Shown: positions 13,645 to 58,740 of the stretch, piece after piece
Position numbering within the stretch: the stretch's first letter is position 1
How the letters are laid out: each line of letters begins with the position of its first letter
NCBI GenBank assembly: GCA_000146045.2
Contig: BK006936.2
Span: 32,001-96,000, forward strand
Length of the DNA: 64,000 bases
Direction of reading: 5' to 3'
Origin: TPA_inf: Saccharomyces
Taxonomy: Eukaryota
Notes under the pieces: model-generated
The model's input: only the letters and a program-made list of their open reading frames with translations
What the model was told of the DNA's origin: nothing
Database searches by the model: none
Program-made: the position numbers and the translations under genes

Positions 13645-14370
<726 letters not shown>

Positions 14371-27821: not shown

Positions 27822-28739
27822 TTACACAACAACACCGGAGTTAGATGCAACTCTTGGCCATAAATCGGCACATTCCTTACCGACTGGACCAGTGATGGCG
27901 GAACCCTTCATTTCACCCTTAGGATTAGCGATGACACCAGCATTGTCTTCGAAGTACAAAAAGACACCGTCTCTTCTTCTCCAAGACTTAGCTTGACGGA
28001 CAACAATAGCTGGCATAACCTTCTTTCTCAATTCTGGCTTACCCTTCTTAACGGTGGCCATAACCATATCACCTAGAGAGGCGGCTGGCAATCTGTTCAA
28101 TCTGGAACCAGAGCCTTTGACGGCGATAATGTACAAGTTTCTGGCACCACTGTTGTCAGCACAGTTCATGATGGCACCGACTGGTAGACCTAACTAGTTA
28201 AAAAAGATCTCAATATCGGGGAGTGAGAATAATTTTGTTAGTAAAAGCATAGGGAGAAAGTTAGCAGATGTGGTTAATCTTGAAAAATAGAGTTAAGCGT
28301 GATTTTTGTAGAAATAACATTTCGATGGTTATCCATTAGTATGGGCAAAAGAGGGAGTTAGGATATGCTTGCCGTGTATGATTTTGAAACCAGAAATTTT
28401 TGAGTCCATGAATATTGACAGGTATCACTTCATCTGCAAATACAGCCCGCTTAACCATTTAAAAACTGAATTTATGTGTGTAATTGCATCTTTGGCGGGG
28501 CGGTACCAGTGATGGCACATCTACCATTCTTATGGAAAATAACACCGATAGGTATATGATCAGGCTTCACACTTAGTGTTTAGCGTCTTTTAAACCTCTG
28601 TTTAATTCTGTTGTACCCAGCAAAATGAAATCTTGGAACTTTACTTTATGATCAATTTAACCAAATTGCATTGTGGAAAATAAAAATTTTAACATACTGA
28701 GATTCTAAACTTAGTACCTTGAGCACCGTTACCGGACAT
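27822..28739 (-). CDS. RPL23A: 60S ribosomal protein L23 (uL14). Two exons: 28698-28739 and 27822-28193. 137 aa.
   Basis: Exon 1 is ATGTCCGGTAACGGTGCTCAAGGTACTAAGTTTAGAATCTCA ([14 protein letters not shown]). Exon 2 begins TTAGGTCTACCAGTCGGTGCCATCATGAAC ([16 protein letters not shown]...). Confidence 0.9.
28194..28697 (-). other. RPL23A intron (504 nt)
   Basis: Minus strand: GTATGTTAAAATTTT...TTTTACTAACAAAATTATTCTCACTCCCCGATATTGAGATCTTTTTTAACTAG. GTATGT 5'SS, TACTAAC branchpoint, TAG 3'SS. Confidence 0.9.
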
Positions 28740-43258: not shown

Positions 43259-46200
43259 ATGTTTCAAAGTTTTTTCCACAACAATGGGCCCGCTGCTGCC
43301 GGTGAAACGTTTTCAGATAGCAGATCGTACCCTTTAACGAATCATCAAGAAGTACCCAGGAATGGACTGAATGAGTTGGCCTCATCTGCAACCAAGGCGC
43401 AACAACAACCTACACACATATTAAACTCATATCCAATTACCGGGTCCAACCCACTCATGAGGGCAAGCGCAATGGGGGCGACCTCTGGCAGCATCAATCC
43501 TAATATGTCCAACATGAATGAGCACATTCGTGTTTCCGGGATGGGGACTTCTAAGCCCCTGGACTTAGCGGGAAAGTACATTGACCATCTACAACATAAA
43601 GATAGTAACACTCCCGTACTCGACGAACGATCTTATTATAACAGCGGGGTAGATTATAACTTCAGCAGAGAAAAAAACGGCTTAGGAGCGTTTACTCCAT
43701 TTGAAAAGCAAGATGTGTTCAACATTCCGGACGAGATTTTGCATGAATTTTCCACTTCACAGACAAAAACTGATATGGGTATTTTCCCGGAGTTAAATCG
43801 ATGTTGGATAACTATTGATAATAAACTGATACTCTGGAATATTAACAATGACAATGAGTATCAGGTGGTAGATGATATGAAGCATACCATTCAAAAAGTC
43901 GCCTTGGTAAGACCTAAGCCAAACACCTTTGTGCCTGCCGTGAAGCATCTACTTTTGATAAGCACGACAATGGAGCTTTTCATGTTTGCTATTTCCTTAG
44001 ACAAAGCCACCAACGAACTCAGTGTATTCAATACACATCTATCAGTCCCTGTACAAGGCATTGATGTAATAGACATTGTGTCTCATGAAAGATCGGGTAG
44101 AATTTTCTTCGCAGGCCAAGCCAGTGGCCTGAATATCTGGGAGTTGCACTACTCAGGTTCCGATGACTGGTTCAATAGTAAATGTAGTAAGGTCTGTCTG
44201 ACAAAGTCTGCCCTATTAAGTCTTCTACCTACTAACATGTTATCGCAGATTCCAGGTGTTGATTTTATTCAGGCTTTGTTCGAAGATAATTCTAACGGTA
44301 ATGGCGGATTTTCTCAAGAGACCATCACGCAACTAACTATTGACCAACAAAGAGGAATCATCTATTCATTATCCTCCAAATCCACCATTAGAGCATACGT
44401 AATAACAGAAAAATCACTGGAAGGACCCATGTCAATTGAGCCTGCCTACATCAGTAGGATCATAGGTACCACGACGGCAAGGGCAGCACCGATTTTGGGC
44501 CCCAAATACCTAAAAATTGTCAAGATAAGCTCTGTTGCACCAGAAGAAAACAACAATTTGTTTTTAGTTGCTTTAACAGTAGGTGGTGTGCGTTTGTACT
44601 TTAATGGTTCCATGGGCAGATTTAACATCGAAGCTTTGAGGTTAGAATCGATCAAGTTCCCCCCTAGTTCTGTAACTCCTGAAGTCATCCAACAAGAATT
44701 ACTACATCAACAACAGGAACAGGCGAAGAGAAGCTTTCCTTTCTTTTCAAATCTAATGTCTTCCGAACCAGTCCTCTTAAAATTCCAAAAGAAATCATCT
44801 GTATTACTAGAGACTACAAAAGCAAGTACAATTATTTCCCCAGGCATATTTTTTTCCGCTGTGATCAAGTCATCTCAGCAAACTCATCAACAAGAAAAAA
44901 AAGAGAACTCATCTGTTACTGGAACGACCGCTACCGCAGGGTCTAAAACTGTCAAACAACAGCCAGTTACTTTACAACATAAGCTTTTCGTTAGTGTTCC
45001 AGATTATGGTATCTTGAAAACACACGGTAAGTACGTTGAAAATGCCACGTTTTTGGAAACTGCGGGCCCAGTTCAACAAATTATTCCCTTATCGGGGTTG
45101 TTTAATGCAACGACAAAGCCACAAGGATTTGCTAACGAATTTGCGACACAGTACACATCAGAAACTTTAAGGGTAGCAGTTTTGACGAGCACTTCTATCG
45201 AAATTTATAAATATCGTACTCCTGATGAAATTTTTGAGGATCTAATCGATAATCCGCTGCCATTCGTCTTAAATTATGGTGCCGCGGAAGCTTGTTCCAC
45301 TGCATTGTTTGTTACTTGCAAATCAAATAAATCTGAAAAATTAAGATCTAATGCCCTGACTTTTTTAACTATGGGTATTCCTGGCGTTGTTGACATCAAA
45401 CCTGTCTACAACCGTTATTCTGTATCTACAGTATCCTCTTTATTGTCAAAGCCCACTTTATCAACCGCAACAACTAATCTCCAACAATCAATAACTGGCT
45501 TTAGTAAACCCTCCCCTGCAAACAAGGAAGATTTTGACTTAGATGACGTAATATTATCCCCCAGATTTTACGGTATTGCATTATTGATTACCAGACTACT
45601 TCGAGATATTTGGGGGAGACATGTCTTCATGACTTTTACAGATAATAGGGTGACATCCCATGCTTTCATTTCTTCTTCTGATCCAATCACTCCATCTATT
45701 AATAACCTAAAAAGTGATGAAATTTCACAAAATAGGAACATAATATCAAAGGTTTCTATTTCCAAGGATTGTATCGAGTACTATCTATCTTCAATTAACA
45801 TTTTAAATGAATTTTTCATCACTTATGGTGATTCAATTTCCCAAATATCAGCTCCCTACGTATTAGCGAACAATTCTAACGGCAGGGTTATTGATAAAAC
45901 AGAAGAAGTTGCAAACCAAGCGGAAAGTATAGCGATTAATGCGATGATCAAAATGGTACAGTCCATAAAGGAAGGTCTATCATTCTTGAACGTTTTATAC
46001 GAGGAAAGCGAAGTCGAAGGATTCGACAACCAATACCTTGGTTTCAAGGATATAATCAGTTTTGTAAGCTTGGACGTCCAAAAAGATTTAGTCAAACTAG
46101 ATTTTAAAGATTTATTTGCTCCAAATGACAAAACAAAATCATTAATTAGAGAAATTTTATTATCCATCATCAATAGGAATATCACCAAAGGTGCGTCGAT

Positions 46201-56279: not shown

Positions 56280-56522
56280 AACTAATCGTTCTTATTTCTG
56301 TATATACTATGACCTTGCAAACCTTGAAATGCAAAATTCGTATTCTCTGCTAAATTGAAAAATTTAGAGCATGAAGTGTGTTTTCCAGCAGACACCGCCT
56401 GTGAAAAAGATGGTAAAATGATATGATAATTAAACACACATAATAATAGCATATATGATATATAAGACTATATGAAGAGATGAGGAGAAGAGAAGAAAAA
56501 ATTGGTAGTATTTTCATTTCAT

Positions 56523-57125
56523 CTATTTCTTAGCAGTCAATCTTCTTAGGTAGAAAGCTAATTCTTCACCTTCCAAGATGTAACCATCACATCTACCGGA
56601 TTGACCTGGTCTGGAAGAGATACAAGCGTATAATCTACCGGCGCTGAATTGAGATTCAACGGAAGATTCGATCTTGGCAGAAGCAGCTCTAGCAGCCCAC
56701 TTTCTTTCAGCGTTCTTGCTCTTGGCAACAGTTTCTTCTTCCTTGACGTTCTTCTTCTTACCCAAGGTTTGACCGTAGTGAGCTTCGAACCATTGTCTGA
56801 ATGGAGTAGCATCAATTTGGACAATGGCAGCCTTGGTCAAAGTGTTAGTTCTAACCAATTCATTGTTGGATGGATGGTAAACAACACCAGCAATTCTGGT
56901 CTTCTTGGAGATACCTTCAGAAGCCCAAGAAAAGTTACCGGTTTCAATTCTTAGAGCTCTGTATTTCTTGTTACCACCTCTAGTTCTAACAGAGTGAATT
57001 CTCTTAGCACCGATCTTGGTGTTGGCTGGTTGACGGCCTAATTCGAACTTTCTCTTCTTTCTGAATTGAGCACGCTTGGCACCGGTAGCGGATCTTTTGT
57101 GACGAGAATCACGAGAAATACCCAT
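56523..57125 (-). CDS. RPS8A: 40S ribosomal protein S8 (eS8), 200 aa
   Basis: [65 protein letters not shown]... Full-length match. Single coding exon. Confidence 0.95.
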
Positions 57126-57132
57126 TTTGTAA

Positions 57133-57440
57133 CTGTAATAGAAAATTTAATGACGCTTGTTAGTAAAATAAAGAACGTACAAAAGTTGCGGAATTTTTTT
57201 CTTATCTTGAAATATGCTTTGGTTTCTTTTCATCTCTTCTTGTGAAAAACTCGGCGTTTCATAAGAGGCTTGATTTTTTGGGTACACAAAGGATTCAGTT
57301 TAGTGCACTGCTCCTGTCACAATTTATATCATCCCTTTTAGTTAAGTTTACTTTTTCCACTATCTATTCCATTCAAAGAGAGGTCCTGTAGCATTCAAAA
57401 TAATATGTAGTTCCATTACTCATATGACCATAGCACATAC
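57133..57440 (-). other. Candidate 5'UTR intron of RPS8A (about 308 nt). It has a GTATGT 5' splice site, a perfect TACTAAC branchpoint, and a CAG 3' splice site 7 nt upstream of the ATG.
   Basis: Minus strand: caaaaaGTATGTgctatgg... (5'SS at 57440-57435), then ...ttctttattttTACTAACaagcgtcattaaattttctattaCAG|ttacaaaATGGGT. The branchpoint is at 57165-57159 and the CAG at 57135-57133. To my knowledge this is not annotated. Confidence 0.4.
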
Positions 57441-57785
57441 TTTTTGTCCTGGTGTGTTTATAACGTCTTCTTGTGAGTACCAAAAAGCAAATGGCAAGTG
57501 TAATTTCCTATAACTTTAAGATAGGCCTGTAAATAACGTATATGAAACAGTTCCATCCCGTAACACCATGAACACTGCGTAAGAGAAAGCCCTCAAGCTT
57601 TCCCAGCGATGCTCGTGTGTAGGACCGAACATGGAGGGGGGAACTAGGCCCAGCACGGGTTTGGCGAGGCCGCTCTGCTCGCAGCTCAGGATTCTAAAAG
57701 GTTATTCCGCTGAGAAAATCAGAAAATAGGAACTTCTCACGCAATAATTTTAAAGTTGATGAAAAAGGAAAATTTGTAAAAGTGT

Positions 57786-57860
57786 AAGGGTGTTAAAGAG
57801 GGTGTATGGATGTAAAGTCACAAAAGTTAGAGCAGATGAAAAAGAAATGGGTGGAGACAA
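57786..57860. promoter_or_regulatory. Rap1-like sites in the RPS8A/KTI11 divergent promoter
   Basis: GGGTGTATGGATGT (about 57800-57813) matches the reverse-complement Rap1 consensus AATGTATGGGTGT at 10 of 12 positions. There are weaker neighbours AAGGGTGTT (about 57786) and AAATGGGTGGAGACA (about 57847). A GC-rich island lies at 57590-57700, between these sites and the candidate intron. Confidence 0.35.
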
Positions 57861-57977
57861 ATCCGAAAAAGGACCTATATTATCGCTATAAAGAGCTTCT
57901 CATCGCTTTTTTTTTTCAAAGACACATACATACCACGACTGTAAGCACATCATTTGTACAATACATTACCAGCTGAA

Positions 57978-58226
57978 ATGTCAACATATGACGAAATCGA
58001 AATCGAAGATATGACGTTTGAGCCTGAAAATCAAATGTTCACCTATCCTTGTCCCTGTGGAGATAGGTTTCAAATATATCTGGATGACATGTTTGAGGGC
58101 GAAAAAGTTGCTGTTTGTCCCAGCTGCTCACTGATGATCGATGTAGTTTTCGATAAAGAAGACTTGGCTGAGTACTACGAAGAGGCAGGCATCCACCCCC
58201 CTGAGCCTATTGCCGCTGCTGCCTAA
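57978..58226 (+). CDS. KTI11: CSL-type zinc-finger protein required for diphthamide and elongator-dependent tRNA modification (82 aa)
   Basis: The ORF track start at 57954 is TTG. The first ATG is at 57978 and gives MSTYDEIEIEDMTFEPENQMFTYPCPCGDRFQIYLDDMFEGEKVAVCPSCSLMIDVVFDKEDL..., containing the CPCGD...CPSC CSL zinc finger. Confidence 0.85.
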   Translation: MSTYDEIEIEDMTFEPENQMFTYPCPCGDRFQIYLDDMFEGEKVAVCPSCSLMIDVVFDKEDLAEYYEEAGIHPPEPIAAAA

Positions 58227-58740
58227 AGATGAGAGGCTAGATCGAGAATACAAATAGAAATAAAGAAAGAGCTATATGACTTAGCAACGCAAGCAGAAAA
58301 GAAGGTTTGCTTCTTCGCTGGACTCCGGTTGGAATTACTATTCAAAATTCCAAGTGCACTGATGGAAAACGTTTTGCTCAGGTTGAGCTCTTTTACTGCA
58401 TATAAGGATACTGGGTAGGTGTATATGATTATTTTATACATGATACGTAGGCTAAAATGATTTGGACCCATTAAATCATCTTGTCGCATCTCTTTTCTTT
58501 TTCCTCCATGCTCAGATTTCAATAATATCATCTCAAATGGCTGTGACAAATTTCACCGGAAAGGCGAGGGATTTTTCTGTTGACATTATCAAATTAGCTT
58601 TTTGTCAAAATAATGAAAAATAAAGAAAATATATAAAAGTACATATTATAATCAAAGCTAGCTCAGGTATATTCCCACCTTGTCGAGCATTCCGGAAGCT
58701 ACAAATACGACATTGCATACCAAGAGGCAAACGTTGAACA

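Follow-up and report, generated by a model that had tools for sequence, protein, structure and literature searches.

Gene content and splice signals of the RPS8A leader

The window (the whole stretch of DNA that was analysed, 64,000 nt) harbors on its minus strand the RPS8A gene (YBL072C), which encodes the ribosomal protein eS8. The following features were found in the gene and in the region upstream of it:

56523..57125, minus strand: RPS8A CDS, 200 aa, eS8, uninterrupted (PF01201 Ribosomal_S8e; 100% identical to S. cerevisiae eS8)
57126..57132, minus strand: share of exon 2 in the 5'UTR, UUACAAA, the 7 nt ahead of the ATG (sequence read)
57133..57135, minus strand: 3' splice site CAG, at -8 (sequence read)
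57159..57165, minus strand: branchpoint UACUAAC, with branch A at 57160 (motif search; branchpoint given as TACTAACA in S1 Table of Talkish et al. 2019, PMC6726248)
57435..57440, minus strand: 5' splice site GUAUGU, consensus (motif search; phastCons 0.98 in Talkish et al. 2019, PMC6726248)
57133..57440, minus strand: RPS8A 5'UTR intron (sequence read; identical to the annotated chrII 89440..89133)
57441..57555, minus strand: exon 1 (5' leader), its 3' end at 57441 fixed by the splice junction and 57555 being an upper bound only
57781..57813, minus strand: tandem Rap1-like sites, candidate promoter elements (motif match to ACACCCRYACAYM)

The interval 57440..57133 was delimited by sequence reading and motif search. 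It is 308 nt long and lies at -315..-8 from the RPS8A ATG. GTATGT at 57440-57435, a perfect TACTAAC at 57165-57159 and CAG at 57135-57133 are all present on the minus strand, as the original prediction had it, and the ATG at 57125 follows after the 7 nt TTACAAA (57132-57126). From branch A, the distance is 281 nt to the 5' splice site and 27 nt to the G of the 3' splice site. The distance of 24 nt from the branchpoint that had been proposed is correct if the count runs from 57159, where TACTAAC ends, to 57135, the C of CAG, but not as the spacing between branch A and the 3' splice site G. The CAG had also been described as the first AG downstream of the branchpoint. Literally this does not hold, because an AG at 57157-57156 precedes it, the sole AG to do so; that AG lies merely 4 nt past branch A, too near for use in splicing, and thus the CAG at 57135-57133 is the first usable AG.

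A further 5' splice site-like hexamer, GTACGT, occurs inside the intron (57175-57180, minus strand, at -55), 10 nt upstream of the branchpoint motif. So near the branchpoint, it could not define an intron, and its occurrence is probably fortuitous.

Annotation and earlier reports

The RPS8A leader intron is already known and no new find: the standard yeast annotation has carried it for years, and all modern catalogues of introns include it. A 5'UTR intron of YBL072C RPS8A at -315..-8, chrII 89440..89133 C, is the first row in Table 1 of Ma and Xia 2011 (PMC3226532), a table that covers 24 genes annotated with a 5'UTR intron and whose source is the S. cerevisiae genome annotation in its NCBI copy of July 2011. 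With the ATG at 57125, position -315 is 57440 and position -8 is 57133, so the annotated intron matches the interval exactly. Since the annotated coordinates coincide with the interval, the window corresponds to chrII 32001-96000. This offset of 32000 was cross-checked by RPL32 (YBL092W), which is present in the same table (-333..-1, chrII 45645..45977), as is YER102W RPS8B (-367..-8). The annotated RPL32 coordinates are equivalent to 13645..13977 of the window, and GTATGT and AG are found there:

13645-13977, plus strand: RPL32 (YBL092W) 5'UTR intron, with GTATGT at 13645, TACTAAC at 13934, and AG at 13976-13977 abutting the ATG at 13978

A long T-run follows the TACTAAC at 13934 in the RPL32 intron.

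An RPS8A 5'UTR intron is mentioned in passing in a paper from 2010 (PMC3017085) and in a preprint (bioRxiv 10.1101/2022.06.06.495024). Furthermore, Rangan et al. 2025 (PMC12350175) include 'RPS8A chrII:89132-89440 308' among the introns that were DMS-probed in vivo. RPS8A is one of the set of annotated S. cerevisiae ribosomal protein (RP) genes with 5'UTR introns, together with RPS8B, RPL32, RPS29B, RPS26A/B, RPL24A/B, RPL29 and RPS25A. It shares with them the GUAUGU/UACUAAC/YAG signals, an RP-typical length of ~300-450 nt and a 3' splice site placed a few nt before the AUG.

The original prediction proposed a spliceosomal intron in the RPS8A leader with these exact boundaries, and in this it agrees with both the annotation and the published junction reads. 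Its description of the intron as unannotated was wrong, as the intron had been annotated at precisely these coordinates by 2011 (PMC3226532). RPS8A had been taken to be intronless, which is true of its uninterrupted CDS only and not of the gene, given the annotated 5'UTR intron; the belief in an unannotated status arose because a gene lacking introns in its CDS was counted as 'intronless'. The suggestion that the window contains hidden leader introns at two intronless RP genes is likewise right in that both introns are real (RPS8A and RPL32), but both are already annotated as 5'UTR introns. The case has value as a calibration, in that two real 5'UTR introns were delimited exactly by reading nothing but the sequence.

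Splicing evidence from published RNA-seq

Junction evidence was taken from published count tables (PMC6726248). In the S1 Table of Talkish et al. 2019, the sheet 'Standard Introns' contains chrII 89132-89440 (minus strand, 308 nt) as RPS8A, with the label 'Ares intron'. The row gives a GT-AG intron with the signals GTATGT / TACTAACA / CAG, a distance of 281 between 5' splice site and branchpoint and of 27 between branchpoint and 3' splice site, and the phastCons values of the three signals are 0.98, 0.52 and 0.85 (PMC6726248). Reads joining 57441 to 57132 (minus strand) had been named in the original prediction as a check on splicing, and they are abundant: junction counts published for chrII 89132-89440 total 87,649, above the 69,229 of the ACT1 intron in the same table, and RPS8B reaches 38,500 (PMC6726248). 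The RPS8A counts come from untreated libraries (39,595 and 30,761) and from libraries made after 60 min of rapamycin (8,868 and 8,425), and the lower counts after rapamycin agree with the RP gene repression that the same paper describes (PMC6726248).

The interval thus combines GUAUGU, UACUAAC, a YAG at usable distance and an exon-exon junction in RNA, the last of these known from the published tables, which together characterize a U2-type spliceosomal intron. It is a 5'UTR intron, being wholly upstream of the start codon, and the junction reads imply a transcription start site (TSS) upstream of 57441. It is also a standard intron as defined by Talkish et al. 2019, with a conserved location and efficient splicing.

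Rare GC-AG junctions that use the RPS8A 3' splice site together with starts far upstream (window 57133-58111 and 57133-58598, minus strand) are present in the same data set. In the 'filtered reads' table, a single library gives 52 reads for the one at chrII 90111; the one at chrII 90598 has 22 reads (PMC6726248). They have the look of low-level noise, produced when read-through transcripts from upstream, antisense to KTI11, are spliced. A search of JGI metagenome contigs, a collection that may hold no S. cerevisiae cDNA, returned 0 matches to the spliced junction CCAGGACAAAAA|TTACAAAATGGGTAT.

The paralogue RPS8B and conservation among yeasts

Both genomic homes of the identical eS8 protein were recovered, the RPS8A loci with the neighbours AST1, KTI11 and AAR2, and the RPS8B loci with the neighbours AST2 and SSA4. 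In RPS8B (YER102W), GTATGT is found at -367, TACTAAC at -36 and TAG at -8, followed by the ATG. When the upstream regions of RPS8A and RPS8B were aligned, identity was confined to three islands:

Island 1 of the RPS8A/RPS8B alignment: end of exon 1 and 5' splice site, AACACACCA.GA.AAAA.GTATGT
Island 2 of the RPS8A/RPS8B alignment: TTTTACTAACAA at the branchpoint
Island 3 of the RPS8A/RPS8B alignment: AG and the start codon region

The last 20 nt of exon 1 are identical at 16/20 positions, while the intron interiors are no better aligned than shuffles (z = -1.9). RPS8B is therefore like RPS8A in its three consensus signals, in its 3' splice site at -8 and in its abundant splicing, but differs in intron length (360 vs 308 nt), in the use of UAG instead of CAG and in an interior that cannot be aligned. 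RPS8B, and not RPS8A, is mentioned among the introns whose excised linear RNAs are stable and build up in saturated culture.

The original prediction had pointed to RPS8B, to other S. cerevisiae strains and to sensu stricto orthologues for comparison, and each comparison bore it out. The GTATGT/TACTAAC pair is shared by RPS8B, with the 3' splice site likewise at -8. Six S. cerevisiae sequences are invariant at all three splice signals, but this is weak evidence because the sequences are so little diverged (99% identical across the region). In the sensu stricto orthologues, introns of 298 nt in S. mikatae (543 reads) and 314 nt in S. bayanus (527 reads) are reported to be spliced (PMC6726248).

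At greater distances, syntenic loci were obtained from nine other yeasts through their eS8 homologues. The arrangement GTATGT...TACTAAC...YAG, ending 8-10 nt before the ATG, was found in E. gossypii, L. thermotolerans, K. marxianus, Z. rouxii and N. castellii, with 5' splice sites at -199, -165, -410, -81 and -288, respectively. The introns predicted in these five yeasts are ~73-401 nt long, and the synteny KTI11-RPS8-AAR2 is conserved. C. fabianii and H. uvarum have a TACTAAC near the ATG and, ~390-400 nt upstream, GTAAGT as a candidate 5' splice site; by their sequence, these two yeasts probably keep the leader intron with GTAAGT. The TACTAAC/GTATGT arrangement was not found in the 900 nt upstream of the eS8 ATG in V. 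polyspora Kpol_1045p37 and in M. guilliermondii, which suggests that the intron may have been lost in one V. polyspora copy and may be absent in the CTG-clade M. guilliermondii. RPS8B and pre-duplication yeasts have the intron at this position too, which indicates that it is old. Judged by these predicted signals, the RPS8 leader intron predates the whole-genome duplication and is lost or absent in some lineages. The RPS8A intron is one of the ancient RP gene introns that were retained in an intron-poor genome.

Chance expectation and alternative explanations

The splice motifs do not prove an intron by themselves. In the 64-kb window there are 7 copies of TACTAAC where chance predicts 6.5, and 25 of GTATGT where it predicts 26.5. 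An ordered composite was defined as GTATGT at most 1 kb upstream of TACTAAC, followed by AG 10-60 nt downstream, and its expectation was derived from a Markov-simulated 64-kb window; 3 were seen vs ~1.1 expected per 64 kb. As single motifs occur at the chance rate and ~1.1 composites are expected, the motifs alone are no proof of an intron, and the composite taken alone is weakly beyond chance. Two of the three composites stand directly 5' of an RP gene ATG, namely those of RPL32 (13645-13977, plus strand) and RPS8A (57440-57133, minus strand). The third composite, at 28697..28209 (minus strand), is presumably the annotated intron of RPL23A (YBL087C), going by its position. In this RPL23A candidate, the true 3' splice site may be slightly downstream of the first AG picked in 28209-28697.

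These rates are what would favour an explanation in which splice-like motifs fell by chance in the RPS8A promoter, with a TSS near the ATG and no splicing. We give this explanation a vanishingly small probability, because 87,649 junction reads have been published (PMC6726248) and because the paralogue and at least 7 other species keep the signals in place, around an interior that diverges in sequence and length. It is just as improbable that the interval is a protointron, that is, a young, non-conserved and inefficiently spliced 5'UTR intron-like sequence of the kind described by Talkish et al. The 5'UTR location would agree with this, since 26% of protointrons sit there (PMC6726248), but the same paper classes the RPS8A intron as a standard intron, and its very high junction counts, its consensus signals and its conservation beyond the genus also argue against a protointron.

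Finally, the intron could be genuine and yet missing so far from catalogues of yeast introns. Its signals are perfect, and as the CDS is uninterrupted, lists of genes with introns in the CDS call RPS8A 'intronless'. Novelty is nevertheless highly improbable in view of the annotation at the exact coordinates by 2011 (PMC3226532), the 'Ares intron' label in the 'Standard Introns' sheet (PMC6726248) and the treatment of the RPS8A leader as having a known 5'UTR intron in papers from 2010, 2022 and 2025 (PMC3017085; bioRxiv 10.1101/2022.06.06.495024; PMC12350175). The interval 57440..57133 (minus strand) is almost certainly a canonical, constitutively and efficiently spliced U2-type intron in the RPS8A (YBL072C) leader, and an already annotated one.

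Exon 1, start of transcription and promoter

The junction reads show that transcription begins upstream of 57441. The stretch -430..-316 is free of ATG, which sets 57555 as the upper bound of exon 1 and suggests a TSS between 57441 and ~57555 (minus strand); no mapped RPS8A TSS was found by literature search. Rap1-like candidates had been placed ~650-700 bp upstream of the ATG, and near-consensus matches were indeed located at -688 and -668. The first (57813-57801, ACATCCATACACC) has 1 mismatch to ACACCCRYACAYM, and the second (57793-57781, ACACCCTTACACT) has 2 mismatches to it. These predicted sites are ~340-370 nt upstream of the 5' splice site.

A 32-aa ORF is called in some strain assemblies (L003, L004 and L008; 2570-2668) at about -431..-333 of RPS8A, equivalent to window ~57556-57458 (minus strand). 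Its start codon, the ATG at -431, lies within exon 1 or just upstream of it, and the ORF has no Pfam match. It was probably called spuriously in promoter or leader sequence.

The last ~14 nt of exon 1 (CACCAGGACAAAAA; within 57441-57460, minus strand) are conserved and contain the motif CACCAGGACAAAA directly 5' of GUAUGU. This motif is kept in RPS8A, RPS8B, L. thermotolerans, Z. rouxii and N. castellii (L005, L012, L014, L015), where the intron interiors are unalignable, and its conservation reaches beyond what U1 pairing requires. The likeliest explanation is a conserved short leader or initiator region. By analogy with RPL30, RPS14B and RPS22B, CACCAGGACAAAA might instead be a cis-regulatory element for splicing or translation of the RPS8 mRNA, for example in feedback by eS8, which we consider unlikely; a literature search found no report of RPS8 autoregulation.

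Proposed mechanism and role

In the proposed mechanism, RNA polymerase II starts upstream of 57441 and downstream of the tandem Rap1-like sites (-688 and -668). U1 would recognise GUAUGU, and BBP and U2 would recognise UACUAAC, as the consensus-perfect signals lead one to expect. Splicing, presumably by the usual two-step chemistry, then ligates 57441 to 57132, a ligation for which the junction reads are direct evidence. The mature leader consists of a short exon 1 plus UUACAAA, with the AUG directly after it. The intron holds nine ATGs (-313 to -108) and there is none in -430 to -316, so that splicing yields a leader free of upstream AUGs. Because nine upstream AUGs would otherwise lie between the cap and the start codon, removal of the intron would be needed for productive translation.

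From general knowledge of RP introns, the RPS8A intron probably contributes to expression level, to the balance between the paralogues and to competition for the spliceosome. By analogy with other RP introns, a role in the starvation response is plausible. No report on regulation of the RPS8A intron was found in the literature. RPS8A and RPS22B are alike in being RP genes with a 5'UTR intron. However, the RPS22B intron has a conserved regulatory structure, is autoregulated and is retained under osmotic stress, whereas the RPS8A intron shows no excess structure.

The intron was also considered as a snoRNA host or a known structured regulator. Both were rejected, as no Rfam family matched in 56400-58300 at E<=1 and the intron RNA folds no more stably than its shuffled versions (z = +1.47). 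Among the 24 candidate pseudouridine sites in mRNA that a PSI-seq study lists is chr2:89115 in YBL072C; allowing for a coordinate release that is uncertain by a few nt, this candidate site is window position 57115 (minus strand), in the RPS8A CDS.
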